Source: Escherichia phage EC128. Taken from it: a DNA stretch of 64,000 nt. The translations under genes and the position numbers were made by a program. The notes under the pieces were generated by a model that saw only the letters and a program-made list of their open reading frames with translations, made no database searches and was not told the DNA's origin. Shown here piece after piece: positions 3,217 to 62,284 of the stretch (within the stretch, counting starts at the first letter, position 1; every line of letters begins with the position of its first letter). Where the stretch lies: sequence record ON210139.1; one strand, 5' to 3'.

Positions 3217-3254
3217 GTTTACATAGGGTTTTAGTAGTGATACTATTACCCTAT
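3217..3254 (+). promoter_or_regulatory. early promoter
   Basis: Near-duplicate of promoter at 2851 (aatttcacaaagttgtttacata...gtgatactatta). Confidence 0.55.
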
Positions 3255-4229: not shown

Positions 4230-4302
4230 TGGGAATTAGCCAAGTTGGTAAGGCACTGGATTTTGATTCCAGGATGCAAAGGTTCGAGTCCTTTATTCCC
4301 AG
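4230..4302 (+). tRNA. tRNA-Gln (anticodon UUG)
   Basis: Cloverleaf: acceptor TGGGAAT/ATTCCCA, anticodon loop TTTTGAT, T-loop TTCGAGT. Confidence 0.85.
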
Positions 4303-4303
4303 C

Positions 4304-4390
4304 GCGAGAATGGTCAAATTGGTAAAGGCACAGCACTTAAAATGCTGCGGAATGATTTCCTTGTGGGTTCGAGTCCCACTTCTCGCACCA
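4304..4390 (+). tRNA. tRNA-Leu (anticodon UAA), long variable arm, CCA encoded
   Basis: Acceptor GCGAGAA/TTCTCGC, anticodon loop CTTAAAA, T-loop TTCGAGT, 3' ACCA. Confidence 0.85.
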
Positions 4391-4395
4391 AATTT

Positions 4396-4469
<74 letters not shown>

Positions 4470-4479
4470 ATTTAATTTA

Positions 4480-4553
4480 CTCCGTGTAGCTCAGTTTGGT
4501 AGAGCGTCTGCTTTGGGAGCAGAATGTCGTAGGTTCAAATCCTGCCACGGAGA
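4480..4553 (+). tRNA. tRNA-Pro (anticodon UGG)
   Basis: Acceptor CTCCGTG/CACGGAG, anticodon loop TTTGGGA, T-loop TTCAAAT. Confidence 0.8.
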
Positions 4554-4555
4554 CT

Positions 4556-4642
4556 GGAGGCGTGGCAGAGTGGTTTAATGCACCGGTCTTGAAAACCGGC
4601 AGTCGCTCCGGCGACTCATAGGTTCAAATCCTATCGCCTCCG
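4556..4642 (+). tRNA. tRNA-Ser (anticodon UGA), long variable arm
   Basis: Acceptor GGAGGCG/CGCCTCC, anticodon loop CTTGAAA, T-loop TTCAAAT. Confidence 0.8.
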
Positions 4643-4644
4643 TT

Positions 4645-4720
4645 GCTGATTTAGCTCAGTAGGTAGAGCAACTCACTTGTAATGAGAAGGTCGGCGGTTC
4701 GATTCCGTCAATCAGCACCA
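4645..4720 (+). tRNA. tRNA-Thr (anticodon UGU), CCA encoded
   Basis: Acceptor GCTGATT/AATCAGC, anticodon loop CTTGTAA, T-loop TTCGATT. Confidence 0.85.
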
Positions 4721-4721
4721 A

Positions 4722-4793
4722 GGCCCTGTAGCTGGAAGGTTCAAGCAAGCGACTCATAATCGCCAGATGGTGGTTCAATTCCACCCAGGGCCA
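4722..4793 (+). tRNA. tRNA-Ile (anticodon CAU, AUA-reading type)
   Basis: Acceptor GGCCCTG/CAGGGCC, anticodon loop CTCATAA, T-loop TTCAATT. Confidence 0.75.
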
Positions 4794-4834
4794 TATTTTG
4801 GGAACATAAATACTCTTAGAAATAGGAGATATTT

Positions 4835-5500
4835 ATGTTCCATTACACTTATAAAATAACAAATAAAATTAATAATAAAATTTATATTGGTGTGCATTCT
4901 ACCGAAAATTTAGATGATGGATATATGGGTTCTGGTAAATTATTAAAAAGAGCCCAAGATAAATATGGTATAGAAAATTTTTCTAAAGAAATATTAGAGT
5001 ATTTTGATGATAAAGAATCTATGCTTGAAGCCGAGAAAAATATTGTCACAGAAGAGTTTTTAAATAGACCAGATGTGTATAATTTAAAACTTGGCGGTGA
5101 AGGTGGATGGGACCATATAAATATTCCTGGGATGCTAAACCAGAAGAAAGACGCTAGTTTAAAAGGAGCTAAATCGTTTAAGTCACGTTTTAAAAATGAT
5201 ATTTTACTTCAAGAAAAATATCGTAAACATGGTTCAAATGTATTTAAACGCTTGTGGTCAACTCCTGAATACAGGGAAAAATTTTTAAATAATAGCAGAT
5301 TTTTAAATAAGCATCATACTCCTGAAACTATTAATAAAATGAAAGAATCTCACGCCAGAAATAAACACCAACAGGGCGAAAAGAATTCCCAATTTGGTAT
5401 GATGTGGATTCATTCATTAGATGAAAAAGTTTCTAAACGTATTAAGAAAACTGACCCAATTCCAGAAGGATGGTTTAAAGGTCGAAAAATGAAATTTTAA
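4835..5500 (+). CDS. segB: GIY-YIG homing endonuclease SegB-like
   Basis: 221 aa; N-terminal YTYKITNKINNKIYIGVHS...DGYMGSG; NUMOD-like basic repeats; inserted between tRNA-Ile and tRNA-Arg. Confidence 0.8.
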   Translation: MFHYTYKITNKINNKIYIGVHSTENLDDGYMGSGKLLKRAQDKYGIENFSKEILEYFDDKESMLEAEKNIVTEEFLNRPDVYNLKLGGEGGWDHINIPGMLNQKKDASLKGAKSFKSRFKNDILLQEKYRKHGSNVFKRLWSTPEYREKFLNNSRFLNKHHTPETINKMKESHARNKHQQGEKNSQFGMMWIHSLDEKVSKRIKKTDPIPEGWFKGRKMKF

Positions 5501-5503
5501 TTA

Positions 5504-5580
<77 letters not shown>

Positions 5581-5895
5581 AACAAGAAGCCGGGTCGCTA
5601 CCGGTAAGTCGTCGGACTGATGTTCCCTGAGTAAGGAATTGCGTTAATAATCTTTGCGTTTATTGATGCCCTCTTACATCACAGCAGAAACGGCGCACCG
5701 AATTATCGATTCGAGGAAATATCTTTGCCGTAAGCCGAGTAGCGTTTTTGACGGAACGTTCGGATATGGTCGAGATATGGCCTTTTAAAAATATTGAGTA
5801 GCGTCAACTACTTAATAACCGGGTTCAAGTCCCGGCGTTTCGTACAAACACTTGCCTTAGCAGGTGGAACCCCGACAAGGTTGCCGCAAGGCTTA
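5581..5895 (+). ncRNA. stable small RNA region downstream of tRNA-Arg (T4 RNA C / RNA D-like)
   Basis: GC-rich non-coding stretch with tRNA-like T-arm CCGGGTTCAAGTCCCGG, ending at a terminator; exact RNA ends not determined. Confidence 0.4.
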
Positions 5896-5922
5896 GCCCC
5901 GACCGAAAGGTTGGGGCTTTTT
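5896..5922 (+). terminator. rho-independent terminator
   Basis: GCCCCGACC-GAAA-GGTTGGGGC stem followed by TTTTT; near-identical copy at 6452. Confidence 0.7.
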
Positions 5923-5924
5923 AG

Positions 5925-5932
5925 TATAAATA
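5925..5932 (+). promoter_or_regulatory. late promoter TATAAATA
   Basis: Exact TATAAATA about 35 nt upstream of the 5969 start. Confidence 0.55.
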
Positions 5933-5968
5933 AGTATATTAAAACCACGATTTAAAACAGGAAATAAG

Positions 5969-6443
5969 ATGAAATCATATGCTCAATTTTTAAATGAAGC
6001 GGTGTTAAATGAAGCATCTAGCACCGAAATTCAAGCTGTCGCAAAAGCAGCCATTGCCGCGGGTAAATATTCCTATAAAGATGCTTCCGATGAATCGCGA
6101 TTCCAGTTCGCACGCGACATGAAAGCGGAAGGATTTACGGGAAATGCAGTTAGTATGGCCTGGAAAAGTTTAGTTGCTACTGGAGCTGCTTTTGCAAAGG
6201 CTTCAGGTAAACCTGCTCCTAAAGCAGATCCTAAAGCTGCACAAGAAAAAAAATATTGTTAAAGGAATTATCTCCAAATATGAAGCTATCCTTAAAGAGC
6301 TTTTAGTAATCAAAACTGAAGGCCAAAAGCTAGCTCGTGCTTATAGTTTCAAAGATAATCCGCATGCTCATGACCTAGAGTATGTTGAAGACATCCAAAA
6401 AATTATTAAAGACCGCATTTGGTCTGCTAAACAAATCAAATAA
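5969..6443 (+). CDS. internal-protein-like gene with capsid-targeting N-terminus, interrupted by a frame change at an A8 run (6246-6253)
   Basis: N-terminus MKSYAQFLNEA; frame A stops at 6260-6262; the next 64 sense codons (to 6443) are in another frame and contain no Met; one fewer A would fuse them. Confidence 0.5.
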
Positions 6444-6451
6444 CATTCTTA

Positions 6452-6478
6452 GCCCCGACCAAAAGGTTGGGGCTTTTG
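6452..6478 (+). terminator. rho-independent terminator (duplicate of 5896 hairpin)
   Basis: AGCCCCGACC-AAAA-GGTTGGGGCTTTT. Confidence 0.65.
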
Positions 6479-6590
6479 GTATCTAGGCCTTTCTGGGCCT
6501 CTCTAGGCATTATTTAGTTTCTACCCTTTATAATATATTATCCTATCTTTTAATTGCCCCTCCTGACCCTAGAATTCCCTAAAACTTTTT

Positions 6591-6672
6591 AAAAATTTTT
6601 TCACAAAACTGTTTACATCCCTGTTCTTCCATGGTACTATACAACTATCAACTACTGATACAGAAAACAACT
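6591..6672 (+). promoter_or_regulatory. early promoter inside a conserved cassette (copy A)
   Basis: aaaaattttttcacaaaactgtttaca...atggtactatacaactatcaactactgatacag; near-identical to 50011-50097 and 21347-21433. Confidence 0.6.
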
Positions 6673-6683
6673 TGGAGAACGAA

Positions 6684-6947
6684 ATGGATAATTACGGCGA
6701 ACTGTTCAACTTCTTTATGAAATGTGTTTCAGAAGATTTCGGTCGTACAGTGAATGATATTAAAGTTATCGGTCCTGATCATCCGATGTTTGAAACTTAT
6801 GCGGTAATGGGCAATGAAGACGGTCAGTGGTATACTGTAAAGGTTGTGATTAACATGTTCACTGCTGAAAGTTATGTTAAACTGTCTTCTAAAGTTTACC
6901 ATGATAACGACGAAATCGCAGAAGAATATTTCAATAATATGAAATAA
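6684..6947 (+). CDS. hypothetical acidic protein
   Basis: 87 aa from ATG 6684 with GGAG RBS; ORF open from TTG 6672. Confidence 0.5.
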   Translation: MDNYGELFNFFMKCVSEDFGRTVNDIKVIGPDHPMFETYAVMGNEDGQWYTVKVVINMFTAESYVKLSSKVYHDNDEIAEEYFNNMK

Positions 6948-10811: not shown

Positions 10812-10850
10812 GTTTACTTTCTCCTAGAATTGTGATAGTATATTCACAGT
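10812..10850 (+). promoter_or_regulatory. early promoter
   Basis: GTTTAC ... TGTGATAGTATAT upstream of denV. Confidence 0.5.
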
Positions 10851-10866
10851 TACTTGGAGGGATAAA

Positions 10867-13424: not shown

Positions 13425-13462
13425 GTTTACTTTTCCTCTTGACTGTGGTATAATTTTTCTAT
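13425..13462 (+). promoter_or_regulatory. early promoter (GTTTAC, TGGTATAAT)
   Basis: Close match to sigma70-like consensus, upstream of 13482. Confidence 0.6.
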
Positions 13463-17584: not shown

Positions 17585-17608
17585 AGTCTCCTTCGGGAGA
17601 CTTTTTTC
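17585..17608 (+). terminator. rho-independent terminator
   Basis: AGTCTCC-TTCG-GGAGACT then TTTTTT. Confidence 0.7.
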
Positions 17609-17618
17609 ATTTTACCGG

Positions 17619-17656
17619 TTTACTTTCCATTTGAGCTGTGATACTATACAACCATC
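17619..17656 (+). promoter_or_regulatory. early promoter
   Basis: GTTTAC ... TGTGATACTATAC. Confidence 0.5.
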
Positions 17657-18429: not shown

Positions 18430-18467
18430 GTTTACAAGTTGGCAAGGTTATGGTATAGTAATCTTGT
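18430..18467 (+). promoter_or_regulatory. early promoter (GTTTACAAG...TATGGTATAGTA)
   Basis: Near-duplicate of the dmd promoter at 56382. Confidence 0.5.
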
Positions 18468-21315: not shown

Positions 21316-21317
21316 TA

Positions 21318-21343
21318 GGGAGCCTTCGGGCTCCCTTTTTTTA
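21318..21343 (+). terminator. rho-independent terminator
   Basis: GGGAGCC-TTCG-GGCTCCC then TTTTTTT. Confidence 0.75.
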
Positions 21344-21346
21344 TTT

Positions 21347-21433
21347 CAAAAATTTTTCACAAAACGGTTTACAAGCATAAAGCTTTATGGTACTATACAA
21401 CTATCAACTACTGATACAGATTTGGAGAATAAA
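21347..21433 (+). promoter_or_regulatory. early promoter inside a conserved cassette (copy B)
   Basis: caaaaatttttcacaaaacggtttaca...atggtactatacaactatcaactactgatacagatttggagaataaaATG. Confidence 0.6.
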
Positions 21434-22402
21434 ATGAAAACTGTAACTATCAATAAGGGTATCTACTTCGGTAAAGAAATCTCTGGAACTTTTGAGCTCT
21501 TAGGTGAATGGTTCCCAGATAATGCTCCGGTAGATGCACAAGGAGATGGTAAAGTTTTTGTTGAAATTGACGGTAAGCGTCGCGGTGTTTGGGTTTACAA
21601 ATCAGACATTTCATATGATGGTGTAAAAGTTGAAGAAGTTAAAGAATCATATGAAGATATGAAAACCCGCATTAATAAAAGATTTAATGTTATGGGAATG
21701 ATGACGAATGGTATTATTAACGGAAACATTCGTTCATTAATTATCTCTGGTGCGGCGGGTATTGGTAAAACGTATTCTTTAGATAAAGCTTTGAATAAAG
21801 CAAATGATAATGGATACATTGAATATAAAAGCATTAACGGTAAAATCTCCGGTATCGGTCTTTATGAACAACTTTGGAATAATCGTGAAGAGAATTCTGT
21901 CCTTTTGATTGATGATGTGGATGTTTTCTCTGATATGGACATTCTTAATCTTCTGAAAGCTGCTCTGGACACTGGAGAGACCCGTAAAGTCTGCTGGAGC
22001 ACTGCATCTTCTTACTTAGAAGAAAAAGGCATTGAGCGTGAGTTTGAATTTAAAGGAACGATTGTTTTTATCACAAACGTTGACATTGACCGCGAATTAG
22101 ACCGTGGTACTAAACTTGCTCCACATTTACAAGCATTAGTGTCCCGCTCAGTTTATTTAGATTTGGGTGTTCACACTAATGAAGAAATTATGGTCAGGGT
22201 TGAAGATGTTATTCTTTCAACTGACATGATGCAAAAGCGCGGTCTTTCTGATGAAGAAACTTATAAAGCATTATCATGGATGAAAGTCAATGTTAATCGT
22301 TTACGCAATGTTTCACTGCGTACTGCTCTTTATCTTGCTGACTTTATTATGACCGACAAAAACGGTTGGGAAGAAATCGCTGAAACAGTATTATTAAAAT
22401 GA
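21434..22402 (+). CDS. AAA+/P-loop ATPase
   Basis: 322 aa; Walker A GAAGIGKT, Walker B LLIDDVD; ORF-track start at 21263 reads through the promoter and is rejected. Confidence 0.6.
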   Translation: MKTVTINKGIYFGKEISGTFELLGEWFPDNAPVDAQGDGKVFVEIDGKRRGVWVYKSDISYDGVKVEEVKESYEDMKTRINKRFNVMGMMTNGIINGNIRSLIISGAAGIGKTYSLDKALNKANDNGYIEYKSINGKISGIGLYEQLWNNREENSVLLIDDVDVFSDMDILNLLKAALDTGETRKVCWSTASSYLEEKGIEREFEFKGTIVFITNVDIDRELDRGTKLAPHLQALVSRSVYLDLGVHTNEEIMVRVEDVILSTDMMQKRGLSDEETYKALSWMKVNVNRLRNVSLRTALYLADFIMTDKNGWEEIAETVLLK

Positions 22403-23118
22403 AAAAATATTTTACTATCTATAAAACTGAAATATTAAATTTAAAGACAGGTATTAAGAAATACTATTATGGTCGACATATAACTAATAATATCAATGAT
22501 TCGTATGTTGGTAGTGGAAATTATATAGAACGTGTAAAAGTGTCAAATGACCACATATTATCAAAAACGGTTTTAGAAGTTTTTGATAATTATGATAAAA
22601 TGGTACAAGCTGAAATATTATATATCATGGCAGGTAAATTGAAATATGGGAAAAACTGTGTTAACCTGTCATACGGGGGTGAAGGAGGAAAGGTTGCAGA
22701 TGAAACTAGGATAAAATGCAAAAAGCATTCTATAAATTTATGGAAAAATCCTAATCATATACAGCATATGAAGAAAAAGATGAAAGAGGTCACATCCACG
22801 CCGGAAGCTAAATTAAACACTTCAATAAAAACTTCGCAACGATATAAGGACCCGGTTTTTGTTAGAAAAGTTAGTAATATTATTAAAAAGAAACTAAGCA
22901 ATCCTGTAGTAAAAGAAAAGCATATTAATGGAATTAAAGCTGCAAAGCGTTCTCATTTAACTATATGGCAGTATGAAGATGAATTATTCGAGCTCTGGAA
23001 AGAAACTAAATGTGGATGGAGAAAATTTACAAAGGAAGCTATAAAACACGGATATCCAAATGAACCGTATCGTAGTATGGTATCAACTTTTCAGAAAAGA
23101 CATTTAGAAGAATCCTAA
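22399..23118 (+). CDS. GIY-YIG homing endonuclease (seg-like)
   Basis: 239 aa; N-terminal KYYYGRHITNNINDSYVGSG; basic C-terminal DNA-binding-like repeats. Confidence 0.7.
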   Translation: MKKYFTIYKTEILNLKTGIKKYYYGRHITNNINDSYVGSGNYIERVKVSNDHILSKTVLEVFDNYDKMVQAEILYIMAGKLKYGKNCVNLSYGGEGGKVADETRIKCKKHSINLWKNPNHIQHMKKKMKEVTSTPEAKLNTSIKTSQRYKDPVFVRKVSNIIKKKLSNPVVKEKHINGIKAAKRSHLTIWQYEDELFELWKETKCGWRKFTKEAIKHGYPNEPYRSMVSTFQKRHLEES

Positions 23119-23505: not shown

Positions 23506-23543
23506 GTTTACAAGACCGTTCCTCTGTGGTACTATACAACTAT
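23506..23543 (+). promoter_or_regulatory. early promoter
   Basis: GTTTACA ... GTGGTACTATACAACTATCAACTAC (partial copy of the cassette). Confidence 0.5.
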
Positions 23544-23563
23544 CAACTACGGAGGAACAGAAA

Positions 23564-24091
23564 ATGAACGCTAAAGATATTTTCAACCTGGTAAATTACA
23601 ACGATGGTAAATTTAAATCAGAAGCACAAAGCAAGTTCTTTAATGACATCTCAATCGGAGGTGAAATCACTGTTAATGGAGGACAAATTTACAAATCCCG
23701 TTGGAATTGGATCGTTATTATCGATGAGATTGGTATTGTAGAAATTTACAAGAATACGAATAAAAATCGTACATTACACTGGTCTCGTGATACTAACGAA
23801 CAGTACAAAAAGGATAAAGCATCTAAATTATCTCGTGTAACTCAAGAAGATATTGAGTTCATCAAGAAAGATATTTTAATGTATGATAACTTAATTGCTG
23901 AAGAGCAAGCTGTTATTGATAAATTTGACGAAATTAAAGCTTCTCGTGAAATTCCTGATTTTATGAAAGAATCAGTAAATGAACGATACTCTCTCATTTC
24001 AGAGCGTATTGAAACTTACAAAAAGCAAAGAGCTGAACGCCAAAATACTCTTCGGAAGTTTGAAGAACGGTTAAAGACGGTACTCGCATAA
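23564..24091 (+). CDS. hypothetical protein
   Basis: 175 aa, GGAGG RBS. Confidence 0.55.
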   Translation: MNAKDIFNLVNYNDGKFKSEAQSKFFNDISIGGEITVNGGQIYKSRWNWIVIIDEIGIVEIYKNTNKNRTLHWSRDTNEQYKKDKASKLSRVTQEDIEFIKKDILMYDNLIAEEQAVIDKFDEIKASREIPDFMKESVNERYSLISERIETYKKQRAERQNTLRKFEERLKTVLA

Positions 24092-30807: not shown

Positions 30808-31341
30808 CAATTGAAAAAGAAATTGAAGGATTGATTCATAAAACTAATAAAGACCTTTTGAACGAGAATGCTAATAAAGATTCTCGTGTTTTTCCAACTC
30901 AACGGGACCTTATGGCTGGTATTGTGTCTAAACACATTGCCAAAAATATGGTCCCGTCTTTTATTATGAAAGCGCATGAAAGCGGAATTATCCATTTCCA
31001 TGATATTGATTATTCCCCTGCTCTTCCATTTACTAATTGCTGTTTAGTAGATTTAAAAGGAATGCTTGAGAACGGATTTAAGCTCGGTAATGCACAGATT
31101 GAAACTCCTAAATCAATTGGCGTTGCTACTGCAATTATGGCACAAATTACTGCACAGGTTGCTTCCCATCAATATGGCGGAACGACTTTTGCGAATGTAG
31201 ATAAAGTACTTTCTCCTTATGTTAAACGCACCTATGCAAAACATATTGAAGATGCAGAAAAATGGCAAATCGCCGATGCGTTGAATTATGCTCAATCTAA
31301 AACAGAAAAAGACGTATACGATGCATTCCAAGCTTATGAGT
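30804..31341 (+). CDS. nrdD: anaerobic ribonucleotide reductase NrdD, exon 1
   Basis: Frame runs to 31349 but homology to exon 2 resumes at 32381; splice after U31341 inferred. Confidence 0.8.
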
Positions 31342-31545
31342 TAACGTAAGTCAAGCTCATGTAAAATCTGCCTAAAACGGGAAACTCTCACTGAGACAAT
31401 CCGTTGCTAAATCAGCGGTAGCTGTAAATGCCCAACGACTATCCCTGATGAATGTAAGGGAGTAGGGTCAAGCGACCCGAAACGGCAGACAACTCTTAGA
31501 GTTGAAGATATAGTCTGAACTGCATGGCGACATGCAGCTGTTTAT

Positions 31546-33654: not shown

Positions 33655-34477
33655 GTATTATATAATTTATAAAATAACAAATATAATTAATTCAAAGGAA
33701 TATATCGGTGCGCATAGCACCGATAACATAAATGACGGTTATATGGGGTCAGGAACATTGATTCGTGCCGCTTTATTAAAATATGGTAGAAAAAATTTTA
33801 ATAAAGAAATTTTACATGTTTTTGATAATGAAAAACAAATGTATGATAAAGAAGCTGAACTTGTAACCGAAGAGTATTGTCTAAAAGAAAATACATATAA
33901 TATTAAACCTGGTGGAAAAGGTGGAACTGCCTATGAACAGACACTTGAACATCGCCGCAAAAATAGTTTAGCAAATAAAGGTAAAAAGAGAACAGAAGAA
34001 ACTAAAATAGCTATTTCACGTGCTTTAAAGAAATATAAACGTACGCCAGAGCATCAAGCAAATTTAAATAAAGCCGTAAGCATAGCTATGAAGCGAAAAG
34101 ATGTTAGAAGTAAATTAGCTGGAGAGCGGTCTGAGAAAGATAAATTATCTATATCAAACGGTGTTAAAAAATATTACAATTCTTTGAGTGAAGAAGAACG
34201 CGAACTTCATCGCAAGCGAATTATTGAAGGTAAAAAGAATTCTCCCATGTCATTGGAATCTAGACAAAAGCTTTCAAAAGCTTTAAAAGGACTTCAAGTT
34301 GGTTCAAAAAATCCAATGTATGGAAAAATTTCTCCAACTAGCAAAACCGTTTCAGTTGACGGTATTAAATATGATTCAATTAAAAAGTGCTCAAATGCCA
34401 TAAAAGTTTCTAGACATCTTATACTAAAACGCTGTAATTCTACTGATGAAGCTTGGAAAAATTGGATATTATTATGA
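33647..34477 (+). CDS. GIY-YIG homing endonuclease (seg-like) between nrdD and nrdG
   Basis: 276 aa; YYIIYKITNIINSKEYIGAHSTDNINDGYMGSG; overlaps the nrdD stop and the nrdG start. Confidence 0.75.
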   Translation: MHRYYIIYKITNIINSKEYIGAHSTDNINDGYMGSGTLIRAALLKYGRKNFNKEILHVFDNEKQMYDKEAELVTEEYCLKENTYNIKPGGKGGTAYEQTLEHRRKNSLANKGKKRTEETKIAISRALKKYKRTPEHQANLNKAVSIAMKRKDVRSKLAGERSEKDKLSISNGVKKYYNSLSEEERELHRKRIIEGKKNSPMSLESRQKLSKALKGLQVGSKNPMYGKISPTSKTVSVDGIKYDSIKKCSNAIKVSRHLILKRCNSTDEAWKNWILL

Positions 34478-47216: not shown

Positions 47217-49913
47217 ATGAAAGAATTTTATATCTCTATTGAAACAGTCGGAAATAACATCGTTGAACGTTATATTGATGAAAACGGAAAGGAACGTACT
47301 CGTGAAGTAGAATATCTTCCGACTATGTTTAGGCATTGTAAGGAAGAGTCAAAGTACAAAGACATCTATGGTAAAAATTGCGCTCCTCAAAAATTTCCAT
47401 CAATGAAAGATGCTCGAGATTGGATGAAGCGAATGGAAGACATCGGTCTCGAAGCTCTCGGTATGAACGATTTTAAACTCGCTTATATCAGTGATACATA
47501 TGGTTCAGAAATTGTTTATGACCGAAAATTTGTTCGTGTAGCTAACTGTGACATTGAGGTTACTGGTGATAAATTTCCTGACCCAATGAAAGCTGAATAT
47601 GAAATTGATGCTATCACTCATTATGATTCAATTGACGATCGTTTTTACGTCTTTGATTTGTTGAATTCAATGTACGGTTCAGTATCAAAATGGGATGCAA
47701 AGTTAGCTGCTAAGCTTGACTGTGAAGGTGGTGATGAAGTTCCTCAAGAAATTCTTGACCGAGTAATTTATATGCCATTTGATAATGAGCGTGATATGCT
47801 CATGGAATATATCAATCTTTGGGAACAGAAACGACCTGCTATTTTTACTGGTTGGAATATTGAGGGATTTGACGTTCCGTATATCATGAATCGCGTTAAA
47901 ATGGTTCTCGGTGAACGCAGTATGAAACGTTTCTCTCCAATCGGTCGAGTAAAATCTAAACTAATTCAAAATGTGTACGGTAGCAAAGAAATTTATTCTA
48001 TTGATGGCGTATCTATTCTTGATTATTTAGATTTGTATAAGAAATTCGCATTTACTAATTTGCCGTCATTCTCTTTGGAATCAGTTGCTCAACATGAAAC
48101 CAAAAAAGGTAAATTACCATACGACGGTCCTATTAATAAACTTCGTGAGACTAATCATCAACGATACATTAGTTATAACATCATTGACGTAGAATCAGTT
48201 CAAGCAATTGATAAAATTCGCGGGTTTATCGATCTAGTTTTAAGTATGTCTTATTACGCTAAAATGCCTTTTTCTGGTGTAATGAGTCCTATTAAAACTT
48301 GGGATGCTATTATTTTTAACTCATTGAAAGGTGAACACAAGGTTATTCCTCAACAAGGTTCGCACGTTAAACAAAGTTTTCCGGGTGCATTTGTGTTTGA
48401 ACCTAAGCCAATTGCTCGTCGATATATTATGAGTTTTGACTTGACGTCTCTGTATCCGAGTATTATTCGTCAGGTTAACATTAGTCCTGAGACTATTCGT
48501 GGGCAGTTTAAAGTTCATCCAATTCATGAATATATCGCAGGAACAGCTCCTAAACCGAGTGATGAATATTCTTGTTCTCCGAATGGATGGATGTATGATA
48601 AGCATCAAGAAGGTATCATTCCAAAGGAAATCGCTAAAGTATTTTTCCAGCGTAAAGATTGGAAAAAGAAAATGTTCGCTGAAGAAATGAATGCCGAAGC
48701 TATTAAAAAGATTATTATGAAAGGCGCAGGGTCTTGTTCAACTAAACCAGAAGTTGAACGATATGTTAAGTTCAGTGATGATTTCTTAAATGAACTATCG
48801 AATTATACTGAATCTGTTCTCAATAGTCTGATTGAGGAATGTGAAAAAGCAGCTACACTTGCTAATACAAATCAGCTGAACCGTAAAATTCTCATTAACA
48901 GTCTTTATGGTGCTCTTGGTAATATTCATTTCCGTTACTATGATTTGCGAAATGCTACTGCTATCACAATTTTCGGCCAAGTTGGTATTCAGTGGATTGC
49001 TCGTAAAATTAATGAATATCTGAATAAAGTATGCGGAACTAATGATGAAGATTTCATCGCAGCAGGTGATACTGATTCGGTATATGTTTGCGTAGATAAA
49101 GTTATTGAAAAAGTTGGTCTTGACCGATTCAAAGAGCAGAACGATTTAGTTGAATTCATGAATCAGTTCGGTAAGAAAAAGATGGAACCTATGATTGATG
49201 TTGCATATCGTGAGTTATGTGATTATATGAATAACCGCGAGCATCTGATGCATATGGACCGTGAAGCTATTTCTTGCCCTCCACTTGGTTCAAAGGGCGT
49301 TGGTGGATTTTGGAAAGCGAAAAAGCGTTATGCTCTGAACGTTTATGATATGGAAGATAAACGATTTGCTGAACCGCATCTAAAAATCATGGGTATGGAA
49401 ACTCAACAGAGTTCAACACCAAAAGCAGTGCAAGAAGCTCTCGAAGAAAGTATTCGTCGTATTCTTCAGGAAGGTGAAGAGTCTGTCAAAGAATACTACA
49501 AGAACTTCGAGAAAGAATATCGTCAACTTGACTATAAAGTTATTGCTGAAGTAAAAACTGCGAACGATATAGCAAAATATGATGATAAAGGTTGGCCAGG
49601 ATTTAAATGTCCGTTCCATATTCGCGGTGTGCTAACTTATCGTCGAGCTGTTAGTGGTCTGGGTGTAGCTCCAATTTTGGATGGAAATAAAGTAATGGTT
49701 CTTCCATTGCGTGAAGGAAATCCATTTGGTGACAAGTGCATTGCTTGGCCGTCGGGCACAGAACTTCCAAAAGAAATTCGTTCTGATGTACTGTCTTGGA
49801 TTGACTACTCAACTTTGTTCCAAAAATCGTTTGTTAAACCGCTTGCGGGTATGTGTGAATCGGCTGGTATGGACTATGAAGAAAAAGCTTCGTTAGACTT
49901 CCTGTTTGGCTGA
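47217..49913 (+). CDS. 43: DNA polymerase (family B) gp43
   Basis: 898 aa; exo motif VANCDIEVTG, pol motifs FDLTSLYPSII and AAGDTDSVYV. Confidence 0.95.
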   Translation: MKEFYISIETVGNNIVERYIDENGKERTREVEYLPTMFRHCKEESKYKDIYGKNCAPQKFPSMKDARDWMKRMEDIGLEALGMNDFKLAYISDTYGSEIVYDRKFVRVANCDIEVTGDKFPDPMKAEYEIDAITHYDSIDDRFYVFDLLNSMYGSVSKWDAKLAAKLDCEGGDEVPQEILDRVIYMPFDNERDMLMEYINLWEQKRPAIFTGWNIEGFDVPYIMNRVKMVLGERSMKRFSPIGRVKSKLIQNVYGSKEIYSIDGVSILDYLDLYKKFAFTNLPSFSLESVAQHETKKGKLPYDGPINKLRETNHQRYISYNIIDVESVQAIDKIRGFIDLVLSMSYYAKMPFSGVMSPIKTWDAIIFNSLKGEHKVIPQQGSHVKQSFPGAFVFEPKPIARRYIMSFDLTSLYPSIIRQVNISPETIRGQFKVHPIHEYIAGTAPKPSDEYSCSPNGWMYDKHQEGIIPKEIAKVFFQRKDWKKKMFAEEMNAEAIKKIIMKGAGSCSTKPEVERYVKFSDDFLNELSNYTESVLNSLIEECEKAATLANTNQLNRKILINSLYGALGNIHFRYYDLRNATAITIFGQVGIQWIARKINEYLNKVCGTNDEDFIAAGDTDSVYVCVDKVIEKVGLDRFKEQNDLVEFMNQFGKKKMEPMIDVAYRELCDYMNNREHLMHMDREAISCPPLGSKGVGGFWKAKKRYALNVYDMEDKRFAEPHLKIMGMETQQSSTPKAVQEALEESIRRILQEGEESVKEYYKNFEKEYRQLDYKVIAEVKTANDIAKYDDKGWPGFKCPFHIRGVLTYRRAVSGLGVAPILDGNKVMVLPLREGNPFGDKCIAWPSGTELPKEIRSDVLSWIDYSTLFQKSFVKPLAGMCESAGMDYEEKASLDFLFG

Positions 49914-49924
49914 TAGAATAAATC

Positions 49925-49946
49925 TAGGGACCTCCAGGTCCCTTTT
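49925..49946 (+). terminator. rho-independent terminator
   Basis: GGGACC-TCCA-GGTCCC then TTTTT. Confidence 0.75.
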
Positions 49947-50010
49947 TCATACAAGTAATATAAATCTATACTTAGGAAAAATAGATGATTCTAGGTCCTG
50001 TAAATTCATT

Positions 50011-50097
50011 AAAAATTTTTTCACAAAACTGTTTACAAGACTGTTCTTCCATGGTACTATACAACTATCAACTACTGATACAGATTTGGAGAATAAA
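50011..50097 (+). promoter_or_regulatory. early promoter inside a conserved cassette (copy C)
   Basis: Near-identical to 6591-6672 (5' part) and 21347-21433 (3' part, through the start codon). Confidence 0.6.
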
Positions 50098-50334
50098 ATG
50101 AAAATTGTTATGGGGTGCTTAGCAGTTTGTTTAGTTGCATTAGCAGCAGTTCCATTTGTTAGTGTTGAAAATGATACTCAACCTGTGATTGAATCTAGCA
50201 CCGTTATTCACACTAATGGTAAAATATCAGTTAAAATTGATGATAATCTTCATGTGAATACTAATGGAACGCTGGGTGTTCAATTAGGTAATATCTGTGT
50301 AAGCACTACTGGAGTAATTACTACTTGTATTTGA
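50098..50334 (+). CDS. small secreted/membrane protein
   Basis: 78 aa from ATG 50098; hydrophobic N-terminus MKIVMGCLAVCLVALAAVPF; ORF-track extension from 49906 rejected. Confidence 0.5.
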   Translation: MKIVMGCLAVCLVALAAVPFVSVENDTQPVIESSTVIHTNGKISVKIDDNLHVNTNGTLGVQLGNICVSTTGVITTCI

Positions 50335-50344
50335 GGAAATTATT

Positions 50345-50725
50345 ATGAAAATCGCTATTTTGGTTATTGCATTAGGTCTTACTGGTTGTGTAGCTCAAGG
50401 ACCGGTAGTAAATCAGTCTGATGTAGGAAAAATTGTAAACTGTTCAAGCAAATTTTATAATCCTAATGTCAAGTGTTATAAAGAAGCTCCAAAACAGACA
50501 GTAGAACAAATGCAGGCGAATTTTGACGAGGCTATTCGTCCAGATGAATCTGCTCAAGCATATCGTAATTCGGATGTAATTACACGCGAAGAAAAAATTG
50601 AAAACTACTGTGCAGAACTTTGGGCAAATTGGGCTAATAATTACCAATGGCGTACAGGTAAAAATGCTCCGATGGAGTATGTAGTGAATTCTTATAATTC
50701 ATGTGTAAAAAATTTGACTAAGTGA
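50345..50725 (+). CDS. putative lipoprotein
   Basis: 126 aa; lipobox MKIAILVIALGLTGC. Confidence 0.55.
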   Translation: MKIAILVIALGLTGCVAQGPVVNQSDVGKIVNCSSKFYNPNVKCYKEAPKQTVEQMQANFDEAIRPDESAQAYRNSDVITREEKIENYCAELWANWANNYQWRTGKNAPMEYVVNSYNSCVKNLTK

Positions 50726-51878: not shown

Positions 51879-52510
51879 ATGTGCCACATGTTTATAAGTA
51901 TAAACATCCTAAAACTAAAAAGTGGTATATAGGAAGTCATGATGGTCACAACCCGAATTATGACGGTTCGGGTGTAGTTTGGCAACATGCTAAAAAGAAA
52001 TATGGAATAAAATCCTTTAATAAAGAAATATTATATGAAGGACCAATGTTTAGACAGGTTGAAGAAATTATTTTAACTTGTTTAGATGCTGCTAATTGTC
52101 CGGATTCATATAATTTAAAGAATGAAGCATGGGGAGGAAGTTTTCCAGGCAAATTAAATGGAATGTACGGTAAAAAACTATCTCCAGAAGAAAGATATAA
52201 GTGCGGAAATGCCTTTCGTGGAATCAAGCGTCCTGATCATTCTAAAAGAATGAAAGGCGAAGGTAATCCAATGTATGGTAAAAATGAGCAGGCATATGGA
52301 ATTATAAATCGAGCAAAGGAAAATTCTGGTAAAACTTATGAAGAAATTTTTGGCGCAGAAAAAGCTAAAATAATTAAAGAAACGATGTCTAAAAATCGTA
52401 AAGGAAAACCTCATAATTTGATAGAAAAAATATGTCCGCATTGCGGACTAAAAGGACGTGGGCCAAATATGACAAGATACCATTTTGACAAATGTAAGGC
52501 ACTTAAATGA
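51869..52510 (+). CDS. GIY-YIG homing endonuclease (seg-like)
   Basis: 213 aa; HVYKYKHPKTKKWYIGSHDGHNPNYDGSG; overlaps flanking genes at both ends. Confidence 0.7.
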   Translation: MEVNVPHVYKYKHPKTKKWYIGSHDGHNPNYDGSGVVWQHAKKKYGIKSFNKEILYEGPMFRQVEEIILTCLDAANCPDSYNLKNEAWGGSFPGKLNGMYGKKLSPEERYKCGNAFRGIKRPDHSKRMKGEGNPMYGKNEQAYGIINRAKENSGKTYEEIFGAEKAKIIKETMSKNRKGKPHNLIEKICPHCGLKGRGPNMTRYHFDKCKALK

Positions 52511-54954: not shown

Positions 54955-56382
54955 GTGGTAGAAATTATTCTTTCTCATCTTATATTTGATCAAGCTTATT
55001 TTTCAAAAGTTTGGCCATATATGGATTCAGAATATTTTGAAAGTGGTCCAGCTAAAAATACATTCAAATTAATTAAATCTCATGTCAATGAGTATCATAG
55101 CGTTCCATCTATTAATGCGTTAAATGTTGCATTAGAAAATAGTTCATTTACTGAAACAGAATATTCTGGTGTAAAAACACTTATTTCAAAACTAGCTGAT
55201 TCTCCGGAAGACCACAGCTGGTTAGTAAAAGAAACAGAAAAATATGTTCAGCAAAGGGCGATGTTTAATGCTACGTCTAAAATAATCGAAATTCAAACTA
55301 ATGCTGAGCTTCCTCCGGAAAAACGAAATAAGAAAATGCCAGATGTAGGTGCTATTCCTGACATCATGCGCCAAGCATTATCAATTTCATTTGATAGTTA
55401 CGTTGGTCATGATTGGATGGATGACTACGAAGCACGCTGGCTATCTTATATGAATAAAGCTCGTAAAGTTCCGTTTAAACTCAGAATTCTAAACAAAATT
55501 ACGAAAGGCGGAGCTGAAACTGGAACACTGAACGTTTTAATGGCTGGCGTTAACGTTGGTAAGTCATTAGGTCTGTGTTCATTGGCAGCAGATTATTTGC
55601 AGCTCGGACATAATGTTCTTTACATTTCCATGGAAATGGCAGAAGAAGTCTGTGCTAAGCGTATTGATGCTAATATGCTTGATGTTTCTCTTGATGACAT
55701 TGATGATGGGCATATTTCTTACGCTGAGTATAAAGGAAAAATGGAAAAATGGCGTGAGAAATCTACTCTCGGTCGTTTAATCGTTAAACAGTATCCTACT
55801 GGTGGAGCAGATGCTAATACATTTCGGTCGCTTTTAAATGAATTAAAGCTCAAGAAGAATTTTGTTCCAACAATCATTATTGTTGACTATCTAGGTATTT
55901 GTAAATCTTGCCGCATTAGAGTTTATTCAGAAAATAGTTACACAACTGTTAAAGCCATCGCAGAAGAATTGCGTGCTCTGGCTGTTGAAACTGAAACTGT
56001 TCTTTGGACTGCAGCACAGGTTGGTAAACAGGCTTGGGATTCTTCTGATGTTAACATGAGCGATATTGCAGAATCTGCTGGTCTTCCAGCAACAGCTGAT
56101 TTTATGCTTGCGGTCATTGAAACCGAGGAGTTAGCAGCTGCTGAACAACAACTCATTAAGCAAATCAAATCACGATATGGTGATAAGAATAAGTGGAATA
56201 AGTTTTTGATGGGTGTTCAAAAGGGAAATCAGAAATGGGTAGAAATTGAACAAGATTCTACTCCAACTGAAGTGAACGAAGTAGCAGGTTCACAACAGAT
56301 TCAGGCTGAGCAGAATCGCTATCAAAGAAATGAATCCACTCGAGCTCAGTTAGATGCTTTGGCGAATGAATTAAAATTTTAG
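54955..56382 (+). CDS. 41: replicative DNA helicase gp41 (DnaB-like)
   Basis: 475 aa, GTG start after AAGGAG; Walker A GVNVGKS, Walker B IIVDYLG. Confidence 0.9.
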   Translation: MVEIILSHLIFDQAYFSKVWPYMDSEYFESGPAKNTFKLIKSHVNEYHSVPSINALNVALENSSFTETEYSGVKTLISKLADSPEDHSWLVKETEKYVQQRAMFNATSKIIEIQTNAELPPEKRNKKMPDVGAIPDIMRQALSISFDSYVGHDWMDDYEARWLSYMNKARKVPFKLRILNKITKGGAETGTLNVLMAGVNVGKSLGLCSLAADYLQLGHNVLYISMEMAEEVCAKRIDANMLDVSLDDIDDGHISYAEYKGKMEKWREKSTLGRLIVKQYPTGGADANTFRSLLNELKLKKNFVPTIIIVDYLGICKSCRIRVYSENSYTTVKAIAEELRALAVETETVLWTAAQVGKQAWDSSDVNMSDIAESAGLPATADFMLAVIETEELAAAEQQLIKQIKSRYGDKNKWNKFLMGVQKGNQKWVEIEQDSTPTEVNEVAGSQQIQAEQNRYQRNESTRAQLDALANELKF

Positions 56383-56419
56383 TTTACAAGCTGACGAGAC
56401 TATGGTATAGTAGTCTTGT
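56382..56419 (+). promoter_or_regulatory. early promoter
   Basis: GTTTACAAG ... TATGGTATAGTA, twin of 18430. Confidence 0.55.
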
Positions 56420-59256: not shown

Positions 59257-59291
59257 ATGTCCTCCTTTAAATTAATATTTATCATAAATTT

Positions 59292-59329
59292 GTTTACTTT
59301 CTCAGCTTGTTATGGTATTATAAAATAAA
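59292..59329 (+). promoter_or_regulatory. early promoter
   Basis: GTTTAC ... TATGGTATTAT. Confidence 0.55.
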
Positions 59330-59346
59330 TTGCTGAGGATGATATA

Positions 59347-60686
<1,340 letters not shown>

Positions 60687-62213: not shown

Positions 62214-62237
62214 GGACTCCTTCGGGAGTCCTTTTTC
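62214..62237 (+). terminator. rho-independent terminator
   Basis: GGACTCC-TTCG-GGAGTCC then TTTTT. Confidence 0.75.
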
Positions 62238-62246
62238 ATTTAAATG

Positions 62247-62284
62247 GTTTACTTTCCAAAATGAGTATGGTATAATAGAATTAT
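62247..62284 (+). promoter_or_regulatory. early promoter
   Basis: GTTTAC ... TATGGTATAAT. Confidence 0.55.

Follow-up and report, generated by a model that had tools for sequence, protein, structure and literature searches.

Repeated early-promoter cassettes in a T4-like coliphage: probable shared descent, exchange between copies and a part in small-gene turnover

Introduction

T4-type phages carry promoter-early stem-loop (PeSL) cassettes, which have been described in RB49 and phi1 (Arbiol 2010, PMC2839356) as well as in T4 and PST (Comeau 2014, PMC4122927) and which were proposed as linkers for modular shuffling (PMC2839356, PMC4122927). The PeSL definition sorts subclasses by the position of the stem-loop (PMC2839356), and for T4 and PST the -35 and -10 elements follow TTTACW N17 TAYWAT and an exchange of ndd.4/.5 genes between the two phages has been illustrated (PMC4122927). 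The early promoters of T4 have GTTTAC at -36 to -31, an A-rich stretch at -40 to -44, an upstream A/T tract, TGn and a -10 element (PMC1524935, PMC2988021), and their consensus is unusually long as it reaches past the hexamers (PMC2988021). In addition, the Shine-Dalgarno regions of early T4 genes contain the strong RegB/S1 cleavage consensus GG*AGRAYARAA (Uzan and Miller 2010, PMC3014915).

Here, we analysed 64,000 nucleotides of Escherichia phage EC128 (ON210139.1); this whole stretch is called the window and its positions are used throughout. For this DNA, the original prediction had put forward terminator-plus-early-promoter cassettes, repeated nearly verbatim, that could act as recombination substrates and shuffle the genes behind them. 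The cassettes are already known T4-type early promoters and the linker idea was published in 2010 and 2014. We present the copies of this phage in comparison with these systems.

Genomic context of the cassette copies

The region around the cassettes had ~97% identity to many Tequatrovirus genomes in sequence searches that matched roughly 550-790 Tequatrovirus records, and the window was collinear with the T4 map between ~77 kb and 13.5 kb, running in the descending direction, its plus strand being the direction of early transcription and the minus strand of T4. The window is assigned to Tequatrovirus, that is, to DNA of a T4-like coliphage. The four copies of the repeat all lie on the plus strand, and their locations were named from annotated relatives and T4: copy A (GTTTAC at 6611) is upstream of e.8, copy B (GTTTAC at 21367) upstream of nrdC.10, copy D (GTTTAC at 23506) upstream of nrdC.8 and copy C (GTTTAC at 50031) between gene 43 and an ORF of 78 amino acids that is followed by imm.1. 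T4 has cassettes at the four orthologous loci (before e.8, nrdC.10 and nrdC.8, and between gene 43 and imm.1) and also a related copy upstream of cef. In two relatives (L009 and L016) the cassette core is found before the well-known early gene motA as well, where the 211-aa product, recognised from its sequence, is taken by us to be a MotA-type protein, and phage G8 (L017) bears the core twice, as D-type, in its denB-ndd region.

Besides the cassettes, the window contains a group I intron (Rfam RF00028, 98 bits) at 31306-31537, which is the position of the T4 nrdD intron, and a cluster of eight tRNA genes within 4230-5577, the last of which is tRNA-Arg (5504-5577). Direct repeats of 75-83% identity were found at three sites, 4849-5083, 33667-33841 and 51998-52037, presumably paralogous GIY-YIG (seg-type) homing-endonuclease genes; the first of them lies in a region homologous to segB as annotated in phage PP01.

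Identity of the copies beyond the promoter hexamers

The 23-mer GGTACTATACAACTATCAACTAC is present exactly at 6633, 21389, 23528 and 50053 on the plus strand (four in the window against zero expected), and 100 dinucleotide-preserving shuffles of the window gave no match to it even when three mismatches were allowed. The repeat search recovered a single 83-nt family, in which C, B and D have 93%, 78% and 67% identity to A, respectively. The near-verbatim copies had been placed at 6591-6672, 21347-21440 and 50011-50103, and their sequences and coordinates were found as described; the partial copy reported at 23506-23563 is D, with the exact 23-mer and its 67% identity to A.

The copies are more alike than generic early promoters even with the hexamers excluded, a comparison on which the original prediction had been made to depend. 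The comparison set consisted of 18 intergenic early-promoter-like sites of the window (GTTTAC, 18 nt, TAnnnT) in a gapless alignment. With the -35 and -10 hexamers left out, identity over 79 aligned positions was 86% for A-C, 76% for B-C and 73% for A-B, against a mean of 39% (sd 7, max 65) for the remaining 147 pairs among the 18 sites. Copies B and C show no difference from the -10 hexamer through ATGAAAA, A departs after GATACAG, and D has in common with A, B and C only the -35, the TGG, the -10 and the first ~14 transcribed bases. Since A carries an insertion of 6 nt and begins differently (MDNY), the proposed continuation of identity into the first codons (MKTV/MKIV) holds for B and C and fails for A. 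Among 55 cassettes from relatives, every column of GTTTAC and of TGGTACTATACAACTATCAAC is at least 90% conserved.

Two further pairs of promoters are also alike beyond the consensus, a terminator-plus-promoter pair at 17588-17629 and 62217-62258 (88% over 42 nt) and a promoter-hairpin pair at 18430-18467 and 56382-56419 (84% over 38 nt), and hence other cassette subfamilies exist.

Architecture of the promoter units

All four copies have TTTACA, a 17-nt spacer, TG before the -10 and TACTAT. Copies A, B and C carry an A/T-rich UP-like tract with AAAAATTTTTTCACAAAAC directly upstream of GTTTAC, and the tract of D is weaker; A/T tracts of this kind resemble the UP consensus of E. coli. Cassette C (50008-50097, plus strand) is composed of the UP-like tract (50008-50030), GTTTACA (50031-50037), the 17-nt spacer, TGG (50052-50054) and the -10 TACTAT (50055-50060), followed by a predicted start at A 50067, a leader of 50067-50097 and GGAGAATAAAA at 50088-50098. 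In cassette B (21344-21433, plus strand), GTTTACA (21367-21373) is joined by the palindromic spacer CATAAAGCTTTATG to the -10 (21391-21396), and the predicted start at 21403 and GGAGAATAAAA at 21424-21434 are followed by nrdC.10 (21434-22402); cassette B is orthologous to that of T4. Cassette A (6588-6683, plus strand) has GTTTACA at 6611-6617, the -10 at 6635-6640, a predicted start at 6647 and GGAG at 6674-6677, and is followed by e.8 (6684-6947); it too is orthologous to the T4 cassette at its locus. Cassette D (23506-23563, plus strand) has its predicted start at 23542 and lies upstream of nrdC.8, whose ATG is at 23564. The GGAG Shine-Dalgarno of the cassettes stands 6-7 nt before the ATG. 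The predicted starts were derived from T4 numbering (GTTTAC = -36 to -31, PMC1524935), which gives leaders of ~30 nt. The early promoter plus terminator originally proposed is in agreement with these features, as the four sites fit the T4 early pattern and are orthologous to intergenic sites of T4; each repeat is a copy of the same strong, predicted early promoter from a T4-like coliphage.

Terminators and promoter-spanning hairpins

Upstream of C, an intrinsic terminator follows gene 43 (DNA polymerase, ending at 49913) at 49926-49948 on the plus strand. Its hairpin (49926-49943; AGGGACC/GGTCCCT) has seven pairs, five of them GC, and a T5 tail in a T run, and it lies 88 nt upstream of the C -35; T4 has this hairpin too, and in phage DalCa it carries a terminator annotation. 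The intrinsic terminator after nrdC.11 (21317-21343, plus strand; stem AGGGAGCC/GGCTCCCT, then T7) has its hairpin at 21317-21336, 31 nt upstream of the B -35. Near A, there is a terminator-like hairpin on the plus strand (6451-6477, with the hairpin itself at 6451-6474) 137 nt upstream of the A -35. It belongs to a 30-nt direct repeat as the second of two copies, the first being at 5892-5921. The terminator hairpin that had been claimed before each copy is thus present for A, B and C at these distances. No terminator was found upstream of D, which has a 13-bp hairpin around the promoter instead. Its inverted repeat (23518-23530 and 23546-23558) leaves the -10 to the loop and takes the GGAGG Shine-Dalgarno into the 3' arm, and the fold of -20.9 kcal/mol (z = -4.9) was matched in stability by 0 of 200 shuffles. 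A, B and C are assigned to the PeSL class with an upstream stem-loop and D to the class in which the stem-loop overlaps the -10.

The two 30-nt direct repeats near A (5892-5921 and 6448-6477) are 97% identical copies of one terminator hairpin and flank a 521-bp insert (5928-6448) that is absent in T4 and carries a 97-aa ORF (5969-6262) with no Pfam match. T4 has one copy only of this hairpin, and the insert looks like an indel that arose via the stem-loop rather than the promoter.

The positions of stem-loops were also compared among the early promoters of the window, these four included. Six have a terminator at most 200 nt upstream (6611, 17618, 21367, 35983, 50031 and 62247), and these have no spanning hairpin (z -1.3 to +1.7). 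Eleven have no upstream terminator (2851, 3217, 6948, 7340, 10812, 13425, 18430, 23506, 26471, 56382 and 56885), and eight of the eleven lie in strong inverted repeats that form a spanning hairpin (2851, 3217, 6948, 10812, 13425, 18430, 23506 and 56382; z -2.7 to -5.3). Across the window, an upstream terminator and a spanning hairpin were never found at one promoter. The counts of 0/6 and 8/11 gave p ~0.007 by Fisher's test in our own calculation, with site 59292, which has a doubtful terminator and z = -2.0, left out of the classes. In promoters with a spanning hairpin, base pairing joins the spacer to the first transcribed bases and leaves the -10 in the loop, and the 3' arm takes in the Shine-Dalgarno at 10812 (denV), 13425 (regB) and 23506 (nrdC.8). 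At 10812, 13425 and D, the Shine-Dalgarno would be masked in read-through RNA and free in RNA started at the promoter. Masking by the spacer GTTCTTCCA of A and C in read-through RNA was weak or absent (z = -1.3 for A and +1.7 for C), the value for B was z = +0.6, and D alone among the four copies shows masking.

Leader and RegB site

Folding from the predicted starts gave -0.6 to -3.8 kcal/mol for the leaders of A, B and C, with z -0.3 to +1.2 against shuffles, and 0 kcal/mol for that of D, which is unstructured. The A and C leaders could form a 5-bp TATCA/TGATA pairing. At gathering score, Rfam matched tRNAs and the group I intron only in the whole window, and no family was matched at any cassette. 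The sequence GGAGAATAAAA in B (21424) and C (50088) is an exact match to the strong RegB/S1 consensus GGAGRAYARAA, A of the window reads GGAGAACGAAA, which has one mismatch to it, and D does not match. This consensus occurs three times in the window against 0.44 expected, and the third occurrence (3265) belongs to a different early promoter. Collinearity of the window with T4 extends through the regB region, and a promoter with a GGAG Shine-Dalgarno is found at 13425, at the expected regB start.

As the leaders are unstructured, no Rfam family was matched and the consensus match is exact, the likely RNA signal of B and C is the Shine-Dalgarno together with the RegB site, which would permit shut-off after the early period. 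The regulatory RNA element that had been suggested for the shared leader is retained in this modest form for B and C, with GGAG in an exact RegB consensus, and is not borne out as a folded structure or an Rfam family.

Exchange between cassette copies

The 55 cassettes were collected from ~30 related genomes and metagenomic contigs, to which IMG/VR contributed only ~5 Tequatrovirus contigs. Site C is mosaic, with 13 haplotypes among 18 sequences. Its spacer is identical at 18/18 positions to the site-A spacer atccctgttcttccatgg in some genomes (e.g. L024) and at 18/18 to the site-D spacer aagaccgttcctctgtgg in L028, and that of T4 and the window combines D and A in a chimera (aagactgttc + ttccatgg). 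These alleles differ from each other at 3-4 positions together, in an 18-nt segment that is otherwise unconstrained (40% identity, sd 12, among other promoters), and therefore ectopic exchange explains them better than parallel mutation. The B and C leaders of the window are identical (CTACTGATACAG) and all six other genomes with an intact B leader have CTGATACGG at site B; as this TAC difference lies in an ACTACT repeat where slippage could repeat it, it is weak evidence for conversion.

In the contig L047 (Logan SRR22328048, 4226 nt), gene 43, a C-type cassette and nrdC.10 are joined, possibly as an assembly artefact; it may be a short-read assembly mis-joined at the ~50-nt exact repeat or a genuine B x C recombinant. 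The first base of each of three more Logan contigs (L048, L050 and L051) lies exactly 55 nt upstream of nrdC.10. Taken together, the genomes compared suggest that the cassette copies exchange sequence, hybrid cassettes being seen across them.

Gene gain and loss at the cassettes

Directly behind C, the window has the 78-aa ORF (50098-50334, plus strand) with a hydrophobic N-terminus and no Pfam match, and then imm.1 (50345-50725, plus strand), which has DUF5481 and the lipobox LTGC. In T4 the ORF is absent and imm.1 is the gene directly behind cassette C. By tblastn, the ORF was found in 325 phage records, one per record. Site C reads cassette-ATGAAAAT-CGCT (imm.1) in T4 and cassette-ATGAAAAT-TGTT..., 237 nt of ORF, ATGAAAAT-CGCT (imm.1) in the window, and thus the 78-aa ORF is an indel bounded on both sides by ATGAAAAT. 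Identical imm.1 genes are found in genomes both with and without the ORF. The right end of the indel has 8-bp microhomology only, which slipped mispairing would explain as readily as recombination at the cassette. At site B of two relatives (L015 and L045), ~720 bp with three small ORFs lie between the cassette and nrdC.10, and the left breakpoint of this block is immediately after ACTATCAA. The search of related genomes for the same cassette before different genes, which had been suggested as a check, thus returned the 78-aa ORF or imm.1 at C and nrdC.10 or the three-ORF block at B. The view of the cassettes as recombination substrates gains from the A- and D-type spacer alleles at C and from these two indels that begin inside cassettes, among ~30 genomes.

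Against T4, the window has ~22 indels, of which 2-4 touch an early-promoter cassette or its terminator, and so the cassettes are at most a minor route of gene turnover; with 2-4 of ~22, no general enrichment of indels at cassettes is claimed for window versus T4. Direct contact with an early promoter is seen only for the indels at 50112 and 59284. Two others are nearby, namely the 521-bp insert (5928-6448) with its terminator repeats and an ipII/ipIII gap beside promoter 10812, and of the rest at least one, the indel at 22382-23114 between B and D, contains a seg-like homing-endonuclease gene.

Compared with T4, the window has at 59284-59819 an additional early promoter and 186-aa ORF (59347-59907), which immediately precede dam (GATC methyltransferase). 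This ORF weakly matched the Pfam DpnII restriction endonuclease family below threshold (E = 0.0045, 16.8 bits; cutoff 23), and DpnII is likewise specific for GATC. T4 ipII and ipIII (T4 65360-66453) are missing at window 10856-10863, where gene e is directly followed by promoter 10812 and denV; the IP loci are a variable region.

Origin and maintenance of the repeats

We consider it highly probable that the repeats are paralogous T-even immediate-early promoter cassettes, related by shared descent and ectopic exchange, that serve as junctions for small-gene turnover in the manner of the PeSL model. Transcription starts, promoter activity, termination and RegB cuts are all predicted here from the sequence and from T4 orthology. 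Unmodified host sigma-70 RNA polymerase would bind the A5T6 UP-like tract, GTTTACA (-36 to -30), the 17-nt spacer, TGn and TACTAT, and would start ~7 nt past the -10 at the A of ATCAACTAC. The product would have a ~30-nt leader without stable structure and with the GGAG Shine-Dalgarno 6-7 nt before the ATG, and the unit would be shielded from upstream transcription by the upstream terminator (A, B and C) or by the hairpin around the promoter (D). As the Shine-Dalgarno region of B and C is a perfect strong RegB/S1 site, the mRNAs of these two are probably shut off after the early period by the phage nuclease RegB. The likeness of the copies would result from shared descent and repeated mutual exchange (ectopic gene conversion through the phage recombination system), for which selection on promoter strength alone appears insufficient. 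The same patches of homology may double as junctions at which small genes are inserted, lost or swapped.

It is conceivable, though rather unlikely, that the near-invariant 23-mer from TGG to ~+14 (TGGTACTATACAACTATCAACTAC) is kept for a sequence-specific role past sigma-70 binding, in which case frequent ectopic conversion would keep this promoter subfamily together as a coordinated regulon comprising e.8, nrdC.10, nrdC.8, the imm.1 locus, motA and cef. The 23-mer may bind a phage factor for early shutoff or for modification of RNA polymerase, fix the 5' end and thereby the fate of the mRNA, or act as a preferred recombination hotspot.

The likeness of the copies could also have arisen by convergence only, with each promoter selected independently to the optimum of RNA polymerase and no exchange. 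This agrees with the long T4 early consensus that goes past the hexamers (PMC2988021) and with the presence of the transcript-start motif TATCAACTAC in less related promoters (at 3217 in the window and upstream of the MTRI ORF in T4), yet site C bears whole A and D spacer alleles in a spacer that is unconstrained elsewhere (40%, sd 12), and the identity of B and C runs on through non-promoter bases to ATGAAAA, which makes convergence alone an unlikely account. The near-invariance from the -10 to ~+14 in the 55 cassettes, together with the TATCA/TGATA pairing possible in the A and C leaders, might instead be attributed to a structured cis-regulatory RNA that the downstream genes share (a riboswitch, a thermosensor or a hairpin that binds a protein). 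However, we rejected a structured leader, which we hold to be very unlikely, as the folds are no better than those of shuffles (z -0.3 to +1.2) and no Rfam family was matched at the cassettes; moreover, the natural variants CTGATACGG and CTAATACGG drop 3 nt of the putative stem, and the predicted leader has just ~30 nt.

An autonomous mobile element (MITE-like, or a homing-endonuclease recognition site), with the repeats as its ends or targets, might be suggested by the several seg/mob-type homing-endonuclease genes in the window, one of them seg-like and between B and D, and by the likening of PeSL+ORF units to integron cassettes (PMC2839356). But the cassettes have no terminal inverted repeats or target-site duplications, every copy is oriented along early transcription, T4 and relatives have the four sites at orthologous rather than variable places, and the endonuclease-associated indels of the window do not adjoin cassettes. 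We rejected this reading for its want of inverted termini and target duplications and for the orthology of the sites across genomes, and regard it as extremely improbable. Shared descent with exchange between early-promoter cassettes is preferred here.

Comparison with known systems

The original prediction was essentially right in its description and its interpretation. The analysis adds independent support for the PeSL model in the T4 species group, the route being minor relative to other sources of indels, and it has little weight for discovery as the cassettes were already catalogued. In practical terms, the ~50-nt exact repeat breaks or mis-joins short-read assemblies of these phages.

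For the T4 genes e, soc and 49, the ribosome-binding site is masked in read-through transcripts and free in transcripts that start inside the hairpin. Copy D and the promoters at 10812 and 13425 resemble these genes in having the Shine-Dalgarno in the 3' arm and a predicted start inside the loop; the internal promoter is late or middle in e, soc and gene 49, whereas here an early promoter is predicted. The cassettes are also similar to morons and integron gene cassettes, small genes that move together with a promoter and a terminator of their own. Insertion is attributed to illegitimate recombination for morons and to an integrase for integron cassettes, whereas in this phage there is no part for an integrase and the proposed homology lies in the regulatory cassette.

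T4 early promoters (Pe) combine 'uber' UP, -35, TGn and -10 elements that are used by unmodified E. coli sigma-70 RNA polymerase (Hinton 2010, PMC2988021; Nolan 2006, PMC1524935), and the present copies share with them GTTTAC, the A/T tract, TGn, TAnnnT, the position before early genes, the four orthologous T4 sites and a T4-type motA promoter. There is no essential difference from Pe, the four copies being an unusually similar subfamily whose likeness extends into the leader. In comparison with the RegB/S1 sites of early T4 (PMC3014915), B and C are alike in the exact consensus within an unstructured intergenic leader, with cleavage here predicted, whereas A differs from the strong sites by one mismatch and D falls outside the consensus.

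The copies have the elements of the PeSL sequence definition, namely a repeated A/T tract, sigma-70-like -35 and -10, a Shine-Dalgarno and a start codon, and the stem-loop is supplied by the terminators upstream of A, B and C and by the 13-bp stem around the -10 of D. As with PeSLs, they are repeated and have small ORFs of variable occurrence next to them, and the proposal is that they supply the homology for insertions, deletions and exchanges. Mini-circles and reporter activity belong to the PeSLs of RB49 and phi1, whereas for the present copies recombination and promoter activity are predicted, and in contrast to PeSLs it is a minority of the indels against T4 that touch a cassette here.
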